DNA of 32,000 nucleotides from Candidatus Hermodarchaeota archaeon (GTDB lineage: Archaea > Asgardarchaeota > Heimdallarchaeia > Hodarchaeales > Hodarchaeaceae), in NCBI GenBank assembly GCA_048886185.1, contig JBHLKY010000012.1, positions 127,981 to 159,980 of the forward strand. The letters run 5' to 3'. Position numbers and translations under genes: made by a program. A model generated the notes under the pieces. It was not told where the DNA came from and ran no database searches. It saw nothing but the letters and a program-made list of their open reading frames with translations. Position 1 is the first letter of the stretch. Each line of letters opens with the position of its first letter. Shown in pieces: positions 14,363-32,000 of the stretch.

Positions 14363-17300
14363 TTATATAACTGGTATTTCCTCTTGAGGATTCGTATTAT
14401 TTGGTACAACCACGTTTACTTCAGGCCTGCTTCCTATCCATAGAGCTTTGTAAACTACTTTCATATCAATCTTAAGAACTTTTGTGAACATATCTAATGC
14501 TTCACTAAGAGTAATTGAAGGAGTATCTCGTAAGAGAGCTAAAGATTTATCAAAAAGGTTTATCTGAGCTTTAGGATCAGTAATACTGGCATCTAGGTTC
14601 GCTTTCACGATTGCTAAGCGTTTAAGCGCATTTAATGAAGCTCTAGAAATACTAGAAATTGAAATACCCCGTTTGAATCTCTCTTCTATGTATTTAATGC
14701 GTCGACAATCAATATAGAAGGGGGAAAGAAGAGTTACTGGGAAATGCTGCTTTACAACTTTCTCTGTCATAGATCCCACGAGGACTTCATTAACAACACC
14801 CAATTCATGTAGAGTTATTTTTTCTTCAATGTTTCTCATAATTGAAATGAATGAGGATTTTATATATTCTGGTGGTGTCTCTTTTAAAAATAAGAATATT
14901 TTAAATGAAGGGGAAGACACAATTAAGATCTGAACTTTATTCTTCTCGATAATACTTGTTCTAATACTTTCTTCAATTTGATTTTCTAACAGTTCAGAGT
15001 CATGTTCAATGAATAAGTTAACAATATCTGATTGAAATGACTCTAAAAAGGAATCGATACCAACTGAAAGACCACCTAACACATCCTGTATCGCACTACG
15101 CGATTGATACATAATATTATTTGTATTATAAATTGGAATGCCTACAGCAGTGGTAACTAAGATCATATAAGTGTTTAATAAGGATTCTAACCTTTTTTGA
15201 TATTCACTGATCTCAGATATCTTCTGTTTCTTCCGCTCTTGATAGGTGATTGAAACTGTATAAACCACAATCACAATACACATCGTACATAAAATTGTCA
15301 GAATTACTGCTTCAAGTATAGAATCAAATATTGGAGGGGGAGGAAAGAAAAATGTAAATTCTCTTCTGATTGAGCCATTTGATTGATTAACTGAATCATA
15401 TACTTCTATAAACCATTTAAAAGTTACTGTATTGTGGAAAGAGAGCATTATTGTATAATGGGTTTGATTAAAAGTCATTGGAACTCTTTTCATCAGAGAT
15501 TCGGATCCATAACCACCTGTTTCTTCAAGAGAAGTAATTTCATAATTCAAATATACTTCAGAGACTCCTGAACCCCAATCTGAGATATTTGCCCAGATAT
15601 TTATTGTAGTTTTATTAATACTGTCAATTCCAGCCGAATGGATTATTGGTTCCCACCAATCAAACATCTGACCAGAGTTTGTGTACAGGCCTGCCTCATA
15701 ATGACCCTTAAGAACTCCTTCATCGATAACATGTATGATATAGGAGAATTTATGCAAATATTCTATCTGTATCTGATAAGTGTAATGAGATCCATTTAAA
15801 ATCATTTCAGTTTCATTTAAAATCCATTCGTCATACGTATCATCTTTCACTGATAATGTAATACTGTGTGTATTGAATAGATCATATAGCTTACACCATA
15901 ACAGGAGTTCTCCAATATATGATGTTGATGCGGTTGTTCCATGGTTAACAACCTTTGCTGGTTGAAAGTTTGATGTTCTTTGATTTATCTCTCCTATGGT
16001 TATATTATTTAATGCAGTATCATATATCTTAATGTAATAATTGAATGTCTGGTTAGAATCCACAATAATTGATTCGACATAATGTGATCCGTTATAACGC
16101 ATTTCTTTTTTTTCTATCCATGAACCAAATCTATTCAAGAAATTTATGGTAAGGTTGACACTATCAATAACACCAAATGGATCAGTAGCATTAGCCCAAA
16201 AGGTTAACAGGCATTCATATTGATTCCAAGTTGTGTTTAAAAAGCCAAATTCATAACAAATTGGATCTGTTTTATCATAAATAGTGATTTTTTGGGGGGA
16301 AGTGGATATATTGTTTCCACTATTATCAAAAGCAGTAATAAAATACCAGAAAGCACGATCAGGAACAAATCCATGTATATAGTAAATGTAAATGTTACCA
16401 GTTCCATTCCAATGCATTACTAGTCCGCTATAATCAGAAACGTATGTGTAATCCAAGAGAACAGATGAATTATCATCAAATAATCCACTACCATAAGGAC
16501 TCTCTTCAACTTCAGCCCAGATGACAACTGTTCCATTCTGGTACACAATTGATTCAGTTCTCGTAATATGTGGAGGAGCATTATCAGAAATTGTTATACT
16601 TTTAGAAATGACCCCCAAATTCCCCGCATTGTCTTCTACCCAAACTTTGATTAACACTTGATCTCCGAAAGGAAAGGTATAGGATGTTTTATATCGATAA
16701 AAGACATCATAATCCATTTCCAATAATATATGATTCTCTAAATGAGTGAAATTAACATAAAAAGTATTATTCACATAGTAATTATCCCCGTAAGGATCAA
16801 TCGCATATACAAAGACGGTTATTTCACCATCATTCTCAGTAGAGTTTTCAATTGAATATATAATTATCGGGGAAACAGTATCAGATAATGTAAAGTTTGA
16901 AGCTTGATCATTTCCTAGATTATACCAATTACCTGTAGTATCAACTGCTGATACATAATACCAAAGACTCTGTAAATTATATTCCAATGAATCAATGCGA
17001 GTAAAAAAAATAATATCTGATAATCGATTCATTGAAAGATTAGTCCATGTTCCAAAATAATTCTGTGAATATAACAAATAAGCAGTAGTATCATTTAATG
17101 GCCAGTCAAGTATTTCAGCATAGAAGTCTACTGTGCCATTTCCCCAATCTATTTTCCAACATGATACAATAGGTATTGAATTATCATCTATAATGAACGG
17201 CCCCTGAATTATTGATGTATTCGAGTTATTGGCAAAATCTGATGCAGTAATCCAATAGTAAACAACATCATTGCATTGAAGCGCCAAATTATAATAAAAG

Positions 17301-20300
17301 TGCTCTTCTGATTCAATCATATAGTATGAAAGGATATCACCATTTATATCTAGATGTAATTGTACATTACTCTTATTAACACCGCTTTGATAATCATTGT
17401 GATCCTCTATAGATACATAAATCTCTACATGACCATGGAAATGAGAATCAAAATTATCTAATATATCCTCCTCATCAATAGGTGGTGCTTCATCATCATC
17501 AGGGATAACCGTGCAAAAAGGAGGAGATAATAAGGAAACTTTTGATCCATTTTCATTTCCTAAACTATCTATTGCAGAATAAACCGTGTAGTTTAAAAGC
17601 ACACCATATTTTGCTTCAAAATAACATACCCAAAACCCAGTAATGTTTTGATGCATTTCTAGAAAACGATTATTTACCTGCAATATTACAGGATCCATTA
17701 ATAAACTCATATTATCTGTAATATTTGCATAAAACTGAAGTGTTCCATTCTGATAATCAGTAACACCATATTCAACAATAATGGGAGGAAAACCATCACC
17801 TAAATAAAGAGATTTAATATGAGTTACAATAGTATTATTTGCGACATCAATAGCAAGAATATTGTAAAAAATCTGAACATCTATATGGGTTAACGAATCC
17901 AATGCTGTTGCATTGTAAAATTGGTTATAAGAAAATTCTTCCATCGTAAAATTTTCATGAATAAGAAGAACTTCATCCGTTATATTGATTACAGTTAAAT
18001 TGATATAAACTTCAAAGCTGCTCTTATCACTAACATTAGCAAAAAAGGTAGGAGAGTTTTCGAAAAGAATGGAAGTATTAATAAAATAGAATTTATGCAC
18101 TAGAGGAGGATCATTATCAGTAAATTCAGAGACAATTACTGTGAACTCATACTTAGGATTAATCTGATAGGTTGAATAAGCAGCAAATTTAAGAAATGCA
18201 AGAGTTTTGTTAATTGAGTCTTCAAATTCTACTGTTATATTATAATAATTATAAGGTAGATTTGAAAAGATAGCATACCCTAAATTTGTTGTATTTTGTG
18301 TCCAAGTAATTGTTGCATTGTTAAAATTTGTAATGTTCACCCTAGCATTAGGAACAATCTTATTATCTAAATCTAAAACATTAATACGCACAGTTGCGTT
18401 CTCAGGGCCTCTCTCTAGATCTGCAATTATATTTCCGTAAACATCATTATTTTCCTCATCAAAATAAATTACGTAGAGTCTTTCTGATGAAATGAAATCA
18501 GTCCGTAATACATTCCAAGCACTTTGAGTAGTGCTAACTCGACGCCCTGATCCCCAAGATTCTCCCCCGTCAGTTGAATTCTTTACAAAAACTGTATTAT
18601 TGATGATATAAACAGCATAGAGATCATTATTTGAAATATCATAAATAGGTTTTGCTTCATCTCCATTTATTCCACAATTTGTAACTATATCAGTTTTTTG
18701 ACTCCAAGAGCGGTTGTGATCAAAGAATACCCATGTTTCTAAATCCCCTGTTGCGCTTAGAATATCATTATTAAGAATAGCATAAATATTATGAGTGTTT
18801 GGATCTATTGTTGCTCCCCAATTAGCATTGTTATTATAAGAATCTTCTGGAAGTATTGTCTCAGAAATGATAGTTGTTACAAAGGTGGGAGAAGTATCCC
18901 ATGTATCCAAATCCTCATTATAAGTAAATGAATAAAGAGAATTTTCAGAAGCATCTTCATAAAGGCAAAGAATATCTCCACCACTTAGAGGAAGGAGTTG
19001 GCCATGGTCATCATCATCCATTAAGAAGGAATATGGAGGAGTAATATCATACCAACTAGAATCAAACTTGGCAAATTGGGGTCCATAGGTCATCCAAGAA
19101 GCACCAAAAATTAATCCATCAGTTGAAACTGTTACTGTACCACCTCCATCAGGTGCATTGTGGGATCCACCAGAAGGCATAATTACGGTCCATTCCCCAC
19201 TAGAAGAGTCATCTTGAGTATCGAGGTAATTATATACCATTTCATCGTCACTGATAGAGTTTGCAACAAAATGGATTTTTGTACCCGTATTATTGGGTGT
19301 CCACTGGTCAAACCAACAACTAAAACTTCGAAACCGATATTCAGGAGGACCACAATCAATGTTAATTGGACCTTCCCAGATAGTCCCATTATCAGTTGTT
19401 TTATAATAGATTATCTCAGCCATACCACCGTTTGTCTTTTGGAAAAAGATATACCCATGAGAATTATTAATAAAAACGATATTTGGCCCTGGGTTGTATT
19501 CATCAGTGGCATCATAAACATCGGTATCAATAATGACCTCCGATCCATCCAAAACAACACTGGAGTCTCTTTGTTCTTCAAAACTAACTGTATAGAAGTT
19601 TTCCGGATCGTGTTGGTTATTGTACTCAGTTATGATCCAATCTGCAGAGATAATTCCCTTATAAAGACGTAACTCGTCAATTACTCCCGCAAATTTCTCA
19701 TCACCACCATAAGTCTGATCAAGAACGAGACGCCCGATTTGATAATTACCAATAGTACCGAATGTAGGATTCCCCGTATTGCTCATACTACCCTCATCAA
19801 GACCATTTACGTACATTTTACCTATATTTTCGCTTTGGTTAGCAGTAGCAACTATGTAAATCCATGATTGTCCAGGCCAAGAGGTAGTAGTGCTATCTAC
19901 ATAATCAAAATTACTACCACCAATACCTTCTACCTTTGAATAGAGCGCTCCATTATTTCCATGAAAATTATCTTGACCTGCAAAAGTAAACGCCATATTA
20001 TAGGCATCGTGGTTATAATGGCCAAAAATTGGCATGGATTCAGCTGAATTTGAATTGAAAGGGGCATTTAATTGCACCCAAGTTGAGATACTATAATTTC
20101 CAGTCCCAATTCTAGGATCCCATACACCTAGACTAATATAATCATCTATACCATCAAAACCTCGTGCTCTCCCTATTTTACCGACTTCATCAAAAGACCC
20201 TTGACTTGTTCCATCAACACTATTTGATGAAGAACCCATTAGGTCTGTATCTAAATGCCAAACTCCCACATAATTGTCACCCCATACACCAATAGCATTT

Positions 20301-20941
20301 TCTTGATTTTCAATGGTAGAATTCCCGTAATACATCGATATTGTGGTATTTACATCACTTGATAGAAATGGTAATCGAATCCATGCCACAAGCAATGCAT
20401 GAGATCCATTGTATGTTACATCAAAATGTTCTATCTCATGATCAAGTGTTTTATTTAATGAATCTTTGAAAATAATGTCATCACCATCAACTTGGGTGTG
20501 ATAACGAAGATCATTATCATAAAGTACTATCAGTACAGGAAAATCACTCAGATTGGCCTGAACATTACCTCCATCTATTGTAATATTTTTGCGATACTGA
20601 AAAGAAGGGGCTCCCCAATTTATGTTTTGAATGTCAGCCTTAATAGGGAATGTTAATTGTCTTTCATTTTGATATGAGTTAGAAGGGAAAGATAAGCATG
20701 GGTTTAAATTCTCTGGATAATTTATTCCGTTTTTTTTATTGAATGAGCTTATGTTGAAAGCATTGCCTTTTAGCTGGGGTACTCTTAAGTACTCGTTTTC
20801 AACTTTAACCATCTGATTATGAAGAGGGTTTACCTGAATAAAAAATTGGGAAAAAAGCGTTAATATAATCATAAATAAAAGGAATTTCAACCTTTCTACT
20901 CTTTTTCTGGATTTCATTTCACTATACTCGTATTTAATCAC
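14363..20941 (-). CDS. Giant single-pass surface protein: DUF2341, LamG/ConA-like domain, BNR/Asp-box repeats, about 9 Ig-like repeats, TM helix, cytoplasmic longin-like domain
   Basis: N-terminal hydrophobic segment; YRKNITID...DFPVLI...AWIRLP...MYYGN (DUF2341); VGVWHLD...FDGIDDYI...GVIDELRLY (LamG); TTDNGTIW and STDGGESW (Asp-box); repeats of about 100 aa opening with D-x-x-P-P/x-I and closing with A-x-D-x-x-G/N-N; TM at about 15243-15320; about 290-aa intracellular tail. GTG start. Confidence 0.85.
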   Translation of the reverse strand: MIKYEYSEMKSRKRVERLKFLLFMIILTLFSQFFIQVNPLHNQMVKVENEYLRVPQLKGNAFNISSFNKKNGINYPENLNPCLSFPSNSYQNERQLTFPIKADIQNINWGAPSFQYRKNITIDGGNVQANLSDFPVLIVLYDNDLRYHTQVDGDDIIFKDSLNKTLDHEIEHFDVTYNGSHALLVAWIRLPFLSSDVNTTISMYYGNSTIENQENAIGVWGDNYVGVWHLDTDLMGSSSNSVDGTSQGSFDEVGKIGRARGFDGIDDYISLGVWDPRIGTGNYSISTWVQLNAPFNSNSAESMPIFGHYNHDAYNMAFTFAGQDNFHGNNGALYSKVEGIGGSNFDYVDSTTTSWPGQSWIYIVATANQSENIGKMYVNGLDEGSMSNTGNPTFGTIGNYQIGRLVLDQTYGGDEKFAGVIDELRLYKGIISADWIITEYNNQHDPENFYTVSFEEQRDSSVVLDGSEVIIDTDVYDATDEYNPGPNIVFINNSHGYIFFQKTNGGMAEIIYYKTTDNGTIWEGPINIDCGPPEYRFRSFSCWFDQWTPNNTGTKIHFVANSISDDEMVYNYLDTQDDSSSGEWTVIMPSGGSHNAPDGGGTVTVSTDGLIFGASWMTYGPQFAKFDSSWYDITPPYSFLMDDDDHGQLLPLSGGDILCLYEDASENSLYSFTYNEDLDTWDTSPTFVTTIISETILPEDSYNNNANWGATIDPNTHNIYAILNNDILSATGDLETWVFFDHNRSWSQKTDIVTNCGINGDEAKPIYDISNNDLYAVYIINNTVFVKNSTDGGESWGSGRRVSTTQSAWNVLRTDFISSERLYVIYFDEENNDVYGNIIADLERGPENATVRINVLDLDNKIVPNARVNITNFNNATITWTQNTTNLGYAIFSNLPYNYYNITVEFEDSINKTLAFLKFAAYSTYQINPKYEFTVIVSEFTDNDPPLVHKFYFINTSILFENSPTFFANVSDKSSFEVYINLTVINITDEVLLIHENFTMEEFSYNQFYNATALDSLTHIDVQIFYNILAIDVANNTIVTHIKSLYLGDGFPPIIVEYGVTDYQNGTLQFYANITDNMSLLMDPVILQVNNRFLEMHQNITGFWVCYFEAKYGVLLNYTVYSAIDSLGNENGSKVSLLSPPFCTVIPDDDEAPPIDEEDILDNFDSHFHGHVEIYVSIEDHNDYQSGVNKSNVQLHLDINGDILSYYMIESEEHFYYNLALQCNDVVYYWITASDFANNSNTSIIQGPFIIDDNSIPIVSCWKIDWGNGTVDFYAEILDWPLNDTTAYLLYSQNYFGTWTNLSMNRLSDIIFFTRIDSLEYNLQSLWYYVSAVDTTGNWYNLGNDQASNFTLSDTVSPIIIYSIENSTENDGEITVFVYAIDPYGDNYYVNNTFYVNFTHLENHILLEMDYDVFYRYKTSYTFPFGDQVLIKVWVEDNAGNLGVISKSITISDNAPPHITRTESIVYQNGTVVIWAEVEESPYGSGLFDDNSSVLLDYTYVSDYSGLVMHWNGTGNIYIYYIHGFVPDRAFWYFITAFDNSGNNISTSPQKITIYDKTDPICYEFGFLNTTWNQYECLLTFWANATDPFGVIDSVNLTINFLNRFGSWIEKKEMRYNGSHYVESIIVDSNQTFNYYIKIYDTALNNITIGEINQRTSNFQPAKVVNHGTTASTSYIGELLLWCKLYDLFNTHSITLSVKDDTYDEWILNETEMILNGSHYTYQIQIEYLHKFSYIIHVIDEGVLKGHYEAGLYTNSGQMFDWWEPIIHSAGIDSINKTTINIWANISDWGSGVSEVYLNYEITSLEETGGYGSESLMKRVPMTFNQTHYTIMLSFHNTVTFKWFIEVYDSVNQSNGSIRREFTFFFPPPPIFDSILEAVILTILCTMCIVIVVYTVSITYQERKKQKISEISEYQKRLESLLNTYMILVTTAVGIPIYNTNNIMYQSRSAIQDVLGGLSVGIDSFLESFQSDIVNLFIEHDSELLENQIEESIRTSIIEKNKVQILIVSSPSFKIFLFLKETPPEYIKSSFISIMRNIEEKITLHELGVVNEVLVGSMTEKVVKQHFPVTLLSPFYIDCRRIKYIEERFKRGISISSISRASLNALKRLAIVKANLDASITDPKAQINLFDKSLALLRDTPSITLSEALDMFTKVLKIDMKVVYKALWIGSRPEVNVVVPNNTNPQEEIPVI

Positions 20942-22586: not shown

Positions 22587-23141
22587 CTAACAATAATGTT
22601 TAGTAATGATCTTATACCCTAATATTGAAAAAGCTTGGTCTACATTCTCTCCTGATTTCGCAGAGGTTTCAAAATAATCAATGGTATCATGTATATTTGA
22701 AAACTTTTTGGATAGCCGATTTTCAATATAATTCTTTGCGGTGTCAATAGGAACCTTAATTTCTTTTGTTAAATCCCTTTTATTCCCTAGAACAATTATA
22801 GCAGAGTTTTGTTCAGTATTTTTTGAATACTCCTGTAACCACCATTCCAAGTTTTCTAAAGAATCTGGACTAGTTAAGTCAAATACCAAAAAAGCTCCAA
22901 TTGACCCTTTATAATACAGTTTTCGGATTTGATCGAAAGTTGGTTGCCCTGCTAGATCCCATATTTGAAAACGAAGATTTTTGGGGCCATCTGAAGTTTC
23001 TAAAGATACTTGTTTAAAAAGAAAATTAGCACCAATTGTAGGAATGTATTCTAAAGTAAAATCCTCTCCTACATATCGACTCATTAGAGATGTTTTTCCT
23101 ACTTTTCCATCTCCAAGCAAGCAAATTTTCGTAAAAATCAA
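22587..23141 (-). CDS. Rab-like small GTPase (copy 3)
   Basis: GDGKVGKTS, YIPTIGANF, WDLAGQ, YYKGS, GNKRD, ETSAKSG. TTG start; an ATG at 23161 is one base out of frame. Confidence 0.9.
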   Translation of the reverse strand: MIFTKICLLGDGKVGKTSLMSRYVGEDFTLEYIPTIGANFLFKQVSLETSDGPKNLRFQIWDLAGQPTFDQIRKLYYKGSIGAFLVFDLTSPDSLENLEWWLQEYSKNTEQNSAIIVLGNKRDLTKEIKVPIDTAKNYIENRLSKKFSNIHDTIDYFETSAKSGENVDQAFSILGYKIITKHYC

Positions 23142-28734: not shown

Positions 28735-29787
28735 ATGCCAATTAAAACTAATATTACTGAGATGCTAGGAATAGACCATCCTATTATCGCAGCACCAATG
28801 GCACCTTTTCATACCACGGAATTGACTGTTGCTGTTTCAGAAGCGGGGGGATTAGGAGTCTTATCACAAATTGGTCTTTTAGATGAAAATAAAAATCCTG
28901 TTGAAGAAATGAAGAAGAACATGAAATATGTTGTAGAACATACAAACAAACCTTTTGGATTCAACATCCGAACCTCGAGATTAGAACCATATGCTACCGA
29001 TTTATGCTCTGAAATACCAAAATTTATTTCAGAAAATCAACGAATTAAAGATCAATGTGTATATGCTTTAACAAGTGCAGGGTCAGCAAAAACTCTACCA
29101 AACTCTAAAAATTTTCAAAAATTAAAGAAAAAATCCCAGATAAAACATTTTCATGTTGCACCTGCATTATGGTTGGCTGAAAAAAGTATAGCAGCTGGAG
29201 TAGATGGATTAGTAATTACAGGAAATGAGGGAGGTGGTCATCAATCATATGAAAAGGTGAGTACGCTGGTTCTTCTCCAACAAATTCAACAAAAATATCC
29301 AGATATGCCTAGAGTTGCATGTGGAGGGTTTGCCACAGGTGAAGGATTAGCTGCAGCATTATCACTAGGAGCGGGCGCTATTGCTATGGGATCAAGATTC
29401 ATTGCTTCTAGGGAATGTGAATTCCATGAAACCTATAAAAGTGTCATTCCACCTGCTAAAGCCCAGGATACTGTACTAGTCACAGGAATTTTAGGCCCCA
29501 TTCGATTATGGAAGAACGAATATTCTCTACAAACTCATGCGGATCTAGTTGCTAATAAAAGAGAGAAATTGGCAAAGGAAGCGGAGATGAACACAGCAGC
29601 GTTAGCTAAAGCAGCCCGTGCATATGATATGGCTTACCAAGGGAATGTAAATGATGGTGCTGTTCTCCTTGGCCAGAGTATTGGTTTGATTGATAGGATT
29701 GAGAGCGTATCAGACATTATTGAAAGAATTGTAAAAGATGCCGAATTAGCTATTGGAAAGGCGATAAGTCGAATAGAGTATGTATGA
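28735..29787 (+). CDS. Nitronate monooxygenase / enoyl-ACP reductase II (FabK)-family flavoprotein
   Basis: LGIDHPIIAAPM, AVSEAGGLG, PFGFN, GNEGGGH, ACGGFATG...LGAGAIAMGSRF, GQSIGLI. Confidence 0.9.
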   Translation: MPIKTNITEMLGIDHPIIAAPMAPFHTTELTVAVSEAGGLGVLSQIGLLDENKNPVEEMKKNMKYVVEHTNKPFGFNIRTSRLEPYATDLCSEIPKFISENQRIKDQCVYALTSAGSAKTLPNSKNFQKLKKKSQIKHFHVAPALWLAEKSIAAGVDGLVITGNEGGGHQSYEKVSTLVLLQQIQQKYPDMPRVACGGFATGEGLAAALSLGAGAIAMGSRFIASRECEFHETYKSVIPPAKAQDTVLVTGILGPIRLWKNEYSLQTHADLVANKREKLAKEAEMNTAALAKAARAYDMAYQGNVNDGAVLLGQSIGLIDRIESVSDIIERIVKDAELAIGKAISRIEYV

Positions 29788-29830
29788 AAGAATTATCATA
29801 CTTTATTTTCTTGTTTCTAAGAAAAAATAT

Positions 29831-30232
29831 TTAAGTAATTGTTATTTCCAAAAATACCCTTTCATCAGGTTTTTTCCAGAATTTTAATTTCTGGAACATT
29901 TTAAAGGTGCTTAAAAGTATTTTATTGAATCCTCTATTAAATTTCAGATCCAGTGCTTCCTTAGCTTTCGACTCCTCTGATTCTGGTAAAATACGAACAG
30001 TAACATCCATATCATCACCAAGGATTTTTCCCCGTATTGTACAAGGAGCAATTTTAGCCTGTGAGTTCTGTTTGATGCGCTTCACTTTCCATGAATTTGC
30101 CCTTGTGTTCACATATAGTCTCTCATCTAGAGTAGCAAATTCTACAGGTGTGGCGACTCCTTTTCCACTCGGATAAAACGTGATGAGACTAATGTATTTG
30201 TATTTCGATAAATTTTCGTACTGGTTTGTCAT
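29831..30232 (-). CDS. PPOX-class (split beta-barrel) oxidoreductase, probably F420-dependent type
   Basis: YISLITF..SGKGVATPV, SWKVKRIKQN, APCTIRG match the PPOX/F420-binding family pattern. Confidence 0.8.
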   Translation of the reverse strand: MTNQYENLSKYKYISLITFYPSGKGVATPVEFATLDERLYVNTRANSWKVKRIKQNSQAKIAPCTIRGKILGDDMDVTVRILPESEESKAKEALDLKFNRGFNKILLSTFKMFQKLKFWKKPDERVFLEITIT

Positions 30233-30447
30233 TGAATATCCTCTAAATCAGTTGATTACGCATTAAATTACAATTAAAACCTATACATAATGATTCTTTG
30301 AATTTTCCTTTTACGAAAAAGATAATTTTAAGTTAGAAGTAATAAGTAATTTTATTAGAGGTTTATAAAAATATCAAACATAAACTTCGCTTAGATACAC
30401 TCCTCTGCGAAATCCAAAGAAATTAATTACATTTACGTGATATAATT

Positions 30448-32000
30448 ATGAACACAGCGAACTCTGACGATCATTCTCTTGATAAAGATTTTATTCGGAA
30501 AATTGTTTCAGATGATGTTAAAAACAACAAAAATAATAGTCGTGTACATACTCGTTTCCCCCCAGAACCAAATGGATGGTTACACATAGGCCACGCGAAA
30601 TCAATTCATCTTAACTTCAGTATCGCAGCTGAGTTCAATGGATTATGTAATCTACGATTTGACGATACAGATCCCGCCAAAGAAAGCATGGAATATGTAG
30701 AGGCTATTAAAAAAGATATTCAATGGCTTGGTTTTGATTGGGAAGACAGACTTTATTTTGCATCGGATTATTTTGAACAGTTATACCAATTGGCAATGGG
30801 ATTAATTAAAGCTGGAAAAGCATATGTATGTGATTTAAGTGTAAAAGAGATCAAGCATCAAAGAGGAACATCAGAAGAACCAGGAATGGAAAGTCCCTAT
30901 CGAAATCGATCAGTAGAAGAAAACATCAAGTTATTTGAGAGGATGCGCAATGGAGAGTTTGAGGATGGATCTCGGGTGCTACGGGCGAAAATTGACATGA
31001 CCTCTCCCAATATGCTTATGCGAGATCCAATAATGTACCGAATAAAGAGGGTACCACATTATAGAACTGGAAATGAGTGGGTGATTTATCCAAGCTATGA
31101 TTATACTCATGGTCAATCTGATGCAATCGAGGGAATTACTCATTCCCTCTGTTCGTTAGAATTTGAGACGCATAGACCCCTTTATAATTGGTACAGAGAC
31201 CAACTTCTGAAATTAAACTTGTTAAAATACTGTCCTGAACAAATTGAATTTTCTAGATTAAATTTAACTTACACTGTTATGAGTAAGCGACGGCTTCTAG
31301 AGCTGGTTGAACAAGGACATGTTTCTGGATGGGACGATCCCCGAATGCCAACTCTTGCAGGATTACGTAGACGTGGTTATCCAGCGGAAGGAATAAGAAA
31401 TTTCTTGGATAAAGTGGGAATTTCAAAGAGAGAAAATTATATTGATGTAGGTCTCTTAGAAGCATGTGTACGCGAAGTAATGGACAGAGAATGTAAACGA
31501 GTTATGGGAGTTCTCCATCCTCTGAAAGTTATAATTCAGAACTATCCCGAAAATAAGGTCGAAGAATTAGATTCGCCCAATCATCCCAAGGATCCCAGTA
31601 TGGGATCACGGAAAATACCATTCTCCCGAGTAATATACATTGAACACGAAGATTTTCTTGAAAAACCTTCAAAGAAATTTTATCGATTAACCCCAGAAAG
31701 AGAGATACGACTTCGATACGCGTATTATATCAAGTGTGTAAATGTAATTAAAGATGAGAATTCTGGAGAAATCCTGGAATTACACGCGACCTACGATCCG
31801 GAAACAAAGGGAGGGTATGCTCCAGACGGTCGAAAAGTCAAAGCGACTCTCCATTGGGTTTCAGCTGAACATGCAATAGCAGCAGAAGCACGCTTATACG
31901 ACCGACTTTTCAACAAGGAAAATCCAATGGAAAATGTAAAATTCACCCAAAATCTTAATCCAAAGTCACTAGAGAAGTTAACGTGTTTTGTAGAGCCAAG
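30448..32000 (+). CDS. glnS: Glutaminyl-tRNA synthetase, partial (runs off the right edge)
   Basis: Missing from the ORF track. Frame open for 517 codons from ATG 30448: [17 protein letters not shown] (HIGH), [56 protein letters not shown], plus beta-barrel anticodon-domain motifs YRLTP...RLRYAY and TLHWVS. Confidence 0.93.

Follow-up and report, generated by a model that had tools for sequence, protein, structure and literature searches.

A bacterial-type glutaminyl-tRNA synthetase (GlnRS) gene, glnS, runs off the right-hand end of the 32,000-nucleotide stretch of Asgard archaeal DNA analysed here (the window; G000:C12:127981-159980, where G000 is the source genome and C-numbers are its contigs), and just beyond the window edge two tRNA-Gln genes face it. 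This one genome carries four tRNA-Gln genes in two classes: the pair linked to glnS, with G73 and A37, and a native pair elsewhere, with A73 and G37. Our preferred explanation, to which we give a probability of roughly 0.7, is that the imported GlnRS charges the duplicated and retuned G73/A37 pair directly with glutamine and that a GluRS of the non-discriminating (ND) type together with GatDE keeps making Gln-tRNA on the native pair by the two-step route. Expression, charging, the assignment of enzymes to tRNAs and the purpose of the substitutions are all inferred from sequence. An earlier reading of the window by sequence only had recognised a GlnRS gene but had framed it as isolated. The gene is real; it is not isolated, since a retuned tRNA-Gln pair adjoins it and the native pair, GluRS and GatDE are retained.

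The glnS stop codon lies at G000:C12:160146, 166 bases beyond the window edge, giving a product of 572 amino acids. The protein passes the GlnRS test (TIGR00440, the glnS equivalog: 716 bits against a cut-off of 425.8) and reaches only 349 bits with the archaeal GluRS model TIGR00463 (gltX_arch; cut-off 401.75). Together with the retained pocket, HIGH and MSKR motifs, this bears out the GlnRS signature that the sequence-only reading had seen in the ORF beginning at 30448. Its best matches in the PDB are the GlnRS of Pseudomonas aeruginosa (5BNZ, 691 bits) and of Escherichia coli (665 bits); the human (4YE6) and yeast (4H3S) eukaryotic enzymes score lower (456 and 414 bits). Pfam identifies the catalytic and two anticodon-binding domains and nothing else. 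The eukaryotic R1/R2 extension (PF04558/PF04557) is absent, 35 residues preceding the RFPPEP motif, and the short N-terminus noted earlier is thus confirmed. No YqeY/GatB C-terminal domain, which it had been suggested might occur in the rest of the gene, is present: GlnS ends 4 residues beyond the matched core. We dropped a YqeY fusion because the protein stops at residue 572 and covers just 2-564 of the 769 positions of NF011291 (GlnRS-YqeY fusion, Deinococcus type). In composition the gene is host-like, in agreement with the earlier remark that it resembles the rest of the window: its GC content (38.2% versus about 35% for the genome) is inside the host range, and it lies at the 81st percentile for GC3 and the 16th for codon score among approximately 2,200 ORFs. 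Judged by score, active site and tree, GlnS belongs to the bacterial-type GlnRS family; two of its tRNA-contact features differ. As part of the full explanation given above, it is probably a working glutamine-specific synthetase.

Table 1. Positions of glnS, of the residues discussed and of neighbouring and related genes. Positions without a contig name are those of the window.
Feature	Location	Strand	Basis	Remarks
Nitronate monooxygenase family gene (+) and PNPOx-like gene (-)	28735..30232	.		Upstream flank; not part of the system
glnS	30448..32000; whole gene G000:C12:158428-160146	+	ORF	Window holds the first 517 of 572 codons
Arg36 (E. coli Arg30) through HIGH motif (His46-His49)	30553..30594	+	Alignment	
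Ser142 (E. coli Leu136)	30871..30873	+	Alignment	Tip of the bacterial 'unpairing loop'
Glutamine pocket Tyr217, His221, Cys235, Phe239 (E. coli Y211, H215, C229, F233)	31096..31164	+		
Thr241	31168..31170	+	Alignment	Replaces E. coli Asp235
MSKR motif	31279..31290	+		KMSKS-type
G36-recognition loop and C34 contacts: Lys410, Arg413, Arg421, Arg423 (E. coli 399, 402, 410, 412)	31675..31716	+		
tRNA-Gln(CUG)	C12:160175-160246 (L001:2176-2247)	-		Intronless; 28 bp past the glnS stop, beyond the window
tRNA-Gln(UUG)	C12:160292-160364 (L001:2293-2365)	-		Intronless; beyond the window
Native tRNA-Gln(UUG)	C3			37/38 intron, G37, A73
Native tRNA-Gln(CUG)	C14			37/38 intron, G37, A73

Residue equivalences were obtained from an alignment of GlnS to E. 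coli GlnS. The full glutamine pocket is kept (R36, D72, Y217, H221, C235, F239 and Q265, the last equivalent to E. coli Gln255), as are the U35 contacts (R351, Q529 and R532; E. coli Arg341, Gln517 and Arg520) and R413 (Arg402) of the G36 loop. The roles of the pocket and anticodon residues, and the opening of pair 1-72 by the unpairing loop, are described in PMC2978374. This loop (E. coli 132-141) is full-length in GlnS, with Ser rather than Leu at its tip; the position is Leu in 67 of 76 named bacteria and Ser in 6 of 12 members of the genus. The other difference concerns Asp235, which in E. coli GlnRS reads G3-C70 of tRNA-Gln. It is replaced by Thr or Ser in 12/12 members of the genus and by Val or Ile in 17 of the 18 GlnRS from the two other families that carry glnS (f4 and f7, see below); in the named bacteria it is Asp or Asn (68/76). 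Val is found at this position in the only bacterial relative whose tRNA-Gln was seen to have C3-G70. Three sister-clade Asgard GlnRS retain Asp, and two loci that were read among them adjoin C3-G70 tRNAs; the change is therefore not required.

The source genome is a 4.84 Mb draft of 75 contigs, 96% complete, with an estimated contamination of 4.96% and no 16S rRNA gene in the assembly, so that host identity rests on the labels of close relatives. These properties are what an origin of glnS in a chimeric assembly or in contaminating bacterial DNA would draw on, and the sequence-only reading had pointed to a possible chimera at 30232-30448. That junction lies within 9.5 kb of sequence that recurs in two other assemblies, with 100% identity in a Logan assembly and 99.99% (one base) in GCA_048938885.1; both may go back to the same sample or to one closely related to it. 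Both flanking genes recur next to glnS in related species (the nitronate monooxygenase gene adjoins it in three others, one of them a single-contig chromosome), which argues that the junction is real. The contig itself is 171 kb long with a tetranucleotide correlation of 0.999 to the genome, four single-contig genomes carry glnS, and the adjoining tRNAs are archaeal. The closest GlnS homologues (76-84% identity) are labelled Hodarchaeales, Heimdallarchaeota or Promethearchaeota, and the chromosome CP070695, labelled Heimdallarchaeota, belongs to the same genus as the host. On the junction matches, tetranucleotide fit, flank recurrence and single-contig relatives, we reject chimera and contamination. 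By its relatives' labels the host is a Hodarchaeales-type Asgard archaeon, in line with the earlier view of the genome as apparently archaeal.

Among 400 Asgard genomes, glnS is found in 43, all Heimdallarchaeia: 12 of 22 genomes of the host family, 21 of 31 of family f4 and 10 of 12 of family f7, with none in other families. A phylogeny of the Glx synthetases, as proposed earlier, was built in three versions (FastTree with 256 rows, a quick LG+C20 tree with 81 rows and a careful LG+C20 tree with 51 rows and 529 columns), whose topologies agree. The careful tree was rooted with a narrow outgroup (Asgard GluRS and the GluRS domains of animal EPRS) and omits L085 (wrong ORF), L190 and L207 (long branches) and many others. 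Eukaryote-type rows were picked by their long N-extension, Pfam R1 being confirmed in five, and most of the deep bacterial-side rows are metagenome proteins. GlnS falls inside bacterial GlnRS and outside archaeal GluRS. In the careful tree, the Heimdall GlnRS are monophyletic (99/95) and nest in a larger group (97/85) whose other members are 12 bacterial-side rows, of which 11 come from genome records of named bacteria. The clade of bacteria plus Heimdallarchaeia has support of 99/95 and the eukaryote-type GlnRS are separate (92/90). A single donor phylum is not resolved in this tree. The nesting supports a bacterial origin of glnS by horizontal acquisition, as had been supposed from the sequence.

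The Heimdall enzymes might instead be native to Asgard archaea, as ancestors or sisters of eukaryotic GlnRS, and bacteria would then have received the gene. Their monophyly, their restriction to the class that is placed nearest to eukaryotes, the Heimdallarchaeia, and the archaeal GluRS N-domain borne by the f4 and f7 versions would fit such a history. Against it, identity reaches 67% with bacterial proteins and only about 43-50% with eukaryote-type ones, and the bacteria-specific unpairing loop is present here and missing in 39 of 45 eukaryote-type sequences. Constraining Heimdall and eukaryotic GlnRS together is 38 log units worse (p-AU 0.003) and constraining the Heimdall enzymes to a basal position is 33.5 log units worse (p-AU 0.017). 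Both placements are rejected by these AU tests, and a native origin, largely refuted, is left as highly improbable. The earlier expectation that the position of this gene would bear directly on the origin of eukaryotic GlnRS did not hold: on these trees GlnS is not the ancestor of the eukaryotic enzyme, and the gene could at most provide an indirect relative date.

Relative distances point the same way. The GlnRS of the genus differ by up to 31% and diverge 4-6 times faster than RpoA' within it, yet between families the two proteins show about equal divergence (GlnRS 0.58-0.65, RpoA' 0.54-0.59). With RpoA' as the one marker, this combination suggests that glnS spread between Heimdall lineages after the families split, and inheritance from the last common ancestor of the Heimdallarchaeia is disfavoured.

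The linked tRNA-Gln genes have A1-U72, G2-C71, C3-G70, A37 and G73. Compared with the bacterial cognate set (U1-A72, G2-C71, G3-C70, G73, YUG and A37) they share G2-C71, G73, YUG and A37 and depart at two acceptor pairs (A1-U72 and C3-G70), which are of the archaeal kind. A37 of tRNA-Gln has a role in recognition by GlnRS. The linked pair is 68-78% identical to the native pair of the host and 41-67% identical to five bacterial tRNA-Gln; being nearer to the host's own, the linked genes are host duplicates and not imports. Co-transfer of bacterial tRNAs with glnS was rejected for this reason. Some orthologues of the linked genes carry archaeal-type introns. The 'tRNA-Pyl' calls made by ARAGORN in the source genome look like mis-parsed introns, the one on C14 being tRNA-Gln(CUG).

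The indirect pathway is present at the genome level, with intact gltX, gatD and gatE and an A1-U72 tRNA-Gln. A check of these three genes and of the tRNA-Gln identity elements, also proposed by the sequence-only reading, thus returned all three genes intact alongside both a G73/A37 and an A73/G37 pair. The gltX gene, on contig C7, encodes an archaeal GluRS (TIGR00463, 488 bits) of ND type: it has Arg at the position equivalent to Cys229, neither G36 loop nor unpairing loop, an N-terminal YqeY-like domain and a place among archaeal GluRS in the tree. GlnS does not show this set of characters. The gatD and gatE genes, both over their cut-offs, are arranged as gatE-gatD on a 5.8 kb contig, and GatE is 62-68% identical to orthologues of the same type in the genus. 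No GatA/amidase was found. In all 12 glnS-carrying genomes of the genus, a GatE over the cut-off and a gatD match are present.

Two further observations concern these enzymes. A second, divergent GatE clade (L225, L226, L227, L228, L230 and L231) is about 33% identical to the GatE of the source genome and keeps the catalytic motifs; no other type was seen in the genomes with a CUA tRNA (see below) or in those f4 genomes that were read, and in G072 and in f7 it accompanies the usual type. Two types of archaeal GluRS, also about 33% identical, coexist within the genus (L190-L193 and L197-L200 versus L201-L205), which implies replacement by transfer.

Within the genus, the 12 genomes with glnS each have exactly two G73 tRNA-Gln ends, all with A37, and at least one A73 copy elsewhere; in 11 of them there are tRNA-Gln genes no more than 1.5 kb from glnS. 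Nine of the ten genomes without glnS have no G73 tRNA-Gln, and the tenth has one G73 copy, beyond which the contig breaks off after 104 bases, on the side where glnS would be expected. As glnS and the tRNAs are physically linked and are lost together from drafts, this co-occurrence is not independent evidence. G37 is found in a set of 11 A73 copies that were read and in both of the source genome; five copies in one sub-clade differ (see below). The single-contig genome G067 carries all four tRNA-Gln genes together with GlnRS, GluRS, GatD and GatE. In a control family free of glnS with the same acceptor stem, 38 of 40 well-assembled genomes have A73 and G73 occurs in one genome only. A sister-clade contig holds glnS, a G73/A37 pair and a native A73/G37 copy, all within 2 kb, the arrangement that a local origin of the pair by duplication would produce. 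In bacterial relatives the tRNA-Gln beside glnS has G73 in 9/9 cases and G37 in 6/9, and A37 is therefore not needed by close bacterial relatives.

Five A73 copies in one sub-clade (L172-L176; genomes G058, G061, G062, G063 and G064) read CUA, with U37. These amber-type genes have a tRNA-Gln scaffold, A1-U72, A73 and a 37/38 intron with a good bulge-helix-bulge. No in-frame TAG occurs in the GlnRS, GluRS, GatD and GatE matches of these genomes, and no general reassignment is apparent. Beside glnS in family f4 there are also genes that resemble tRNA-Gln but have an anticodon loop that is irregular or of UUA type (L024 c1138-1212, L025 c1168-1242, L026 c1171-1245 and L034 2229-2302). A tRNA-Gln(CUG) within 2.5 kb of glnS is seen in 9 of 78 bacterial relatives (L040, L048, L053, L073, L077, L081, L089, L104 and L113).

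Archaeal tRNA-Gln, with its A73 and G37, is regarded as a poor substrate of bacterial GlnRS. The identity of archaeal tRNA-Gln (A73 versus G73) has been proposed as a barrier to bacterial GlnRS (PMC9499178). We envisage that a bacterial glnS entered the Heimdallarchaeia and then probably moved between Heimdall lineages. In Hodarchaeales both host tRNA-Gln genes would have been duplicated and the copies changed to G73 and A37 on an archaeal body, and the enzyme may have relaxed its contacts to pair 3-70 (Asp235 to Thr) and to pair 1-72. A stricter version would make the two systems mutually orthogonal, GlnRS acting only on the G73/A37 pair and ND-GluRS with GatDE only on the A73/G37 pair. The linked tRNAs keep A1-U72, the GatDE determinant, so the two routes may overlap, and we regard full orthogonality as doubtful. 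Were it true, we would have here a halfway stage, natural and stable, in the passage from the indirect route to the direct one, and changing two bases in duplicated tRNAs would be enough to lift the GlnRS barrier in archaea.

There may also be no division of labour: GlnRS would act on all four tRNA-Gln, G73 and A37 would simply tune recognition or hitchhike, and GatDE would clear the Glu-tRNA-Gln made by ND-GluRS. Family f4, which carries glnS yet has mostly A73 tRNA-Gln, and family f6, in which several genomes have G73/G37 tRNA-Gln and glnS was not found, both fit such an arrangement, and because the host GluRS, like a known ND-GluRS, has neither the G36 loop nor the unpairing loop, GatDE would be needed in any case. 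What makes it unlikely is that both isoacceptors are duplicated, altered at the same two positions and kept across the genus; moreover, the N-domain added in f4 and f7 could make up for A73 there, and GlnS here has no such domain. Far less probable still is that GlnS serves as a tRNA-Gln-specific GluRS (GluRS2-like) that supplies GatDE, or that it acts outside translation. Such a role would account for the retention of GatDE throughout the glnS-carrying genomes of the genus and of A1-U72 in the linked tRNAs, but Cys235, His221, Tyr217 and Phe239 form a glutamine-type pocket, and GluRS has Arg at the Cys position. Direct charging of the retuned pair by GlnRS, with the indirect route retained, is the account that we prefer.

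The locus can be compared with several known systems. With bacterial GlnRS (E. coli GlnS, PDB 1GSG/1GTS/1QTQ; P. aeruginosa 5BNZ) it shares a three-domain core of about 560 amino acids without appended domains, the glutamine pocket, the U35, G36 and C34 contacts and the unpairing loop. It differs in its archaeal host, in partner tRNAs with A1-U72 and C3-G70 instead of U1-A72 and G3-C70, in the changes of Leu136 to Ser and Asp235 to Thr, and in coexisting with GatDE and a second tRNA-Gln set. The archaeal indirect pathway (Methanothermobacter thermautotrophicus, PDB 3AII, PMC2978374) has the same components as here (gltX without G36 and unpairing loops, gatD, gatE and an A1-U72/G37/A73 tRNA-Gln) but is stated in reviews to be always the sole route in archaea, which it would not be in this genome. 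Eukaryotic GlnRS (human 4YE6, yeast 4H3S) belongs to the same family and has the same glutamine pocket; GlnS, in contrast, has no R1/R2 extension, has the unpairing loop and lies in a separate clade whose union with the eukaryotic one is rejected.

The chimeric GlnRS of f4 and f7 form a sister clade (56-59% identical), often lie beside tRNA-Gln and likewise occur with retained GluRS and GatDE. They are longer (approximately 641-653 amino acids) and start with a fused archaeal GluRS N-domain (in L018-L035, 38% identity to the GluRS of the source genome over 73 amino acids, E 2e-21), and their tRNAs have mostly A73. These are possibly two answers to one mismatch: to retune the tRNA, or to add a tRNA-binding domain to the enzyme. 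In the GluRS1-GluRS2 pairs of Helicobacter pylori and Acidithiobacillus ferrooxidans (PMC9976931), two Glx synthetases also divide tRNA species within one cell. The second enzyme of those pairs loads Glu and depends on an amidotransferase, whereas GlnS has a glutamine pocket, and here it is the tRNA genes and not the synthetase that are duplicated.

According to reviews, GlnRS is missing from all known archaea; they describe this as an anomaly and attribute it to tRNA-Gln identity (A73 versus G73) (PMC9499178, PMC8762117, PMC5388404, PMC7373986). The present locus is a clear exception. The bare presence of GlnRS in Hodarchaeales is not wholly unrecorded: these proteins carry automatic labels in public databases as glutamine-tRNA ligases, and a single preprint (bioRxiv 2024.07.04.601786) mentions GlnRS in passing in Hodarchaeales and Kariarchaeaceae, linked to cox genes. 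We see no such link, the only coxA being on C1 and both Glx synthetases on other contigs, and four glnS-carrying relatives have no coxA match. Our search, which covered sources other than subscription journals, found no paper describing the origin of archaeal or Asgard GlnRS or a second tRNA set. With GlnRS, both tRNA pairs, ND-GluRS and GatDE in one genome, the idea of an A73/G73 barrier becomes directly testable. The locus does not show from where eukaryotes obtained their GlnRS. It offers a model for installing a direct charging route without losing the old one, a step that the eukaryotic lineage took independently.

The window and its surroundings contain several other genes of interest. 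A Ras-family small GTPase, typical of Asgard archaea, lies at window 22587-23141 (-), and a protein of 2192 amino acids with LamG-3 and DUF2341 domains, probably surface-exposed, at window 14363-20941 (-). About 5 kb downstream of glnS, amid ordinary metabolic genes, is an Hcp-family (PF05638) gene whose product has a hydrophobic N-terminus (L001:6975-7592, +). Further on, a 579-amino-acid protein (L001:11472-13211, -) has a poly-proline run, a charged stretch and Cys-pair motifs. Elsewhere in the genome, two glutamine-synthetase-family matches lie face to face on opposite strands (G000:C26:14932-16955).
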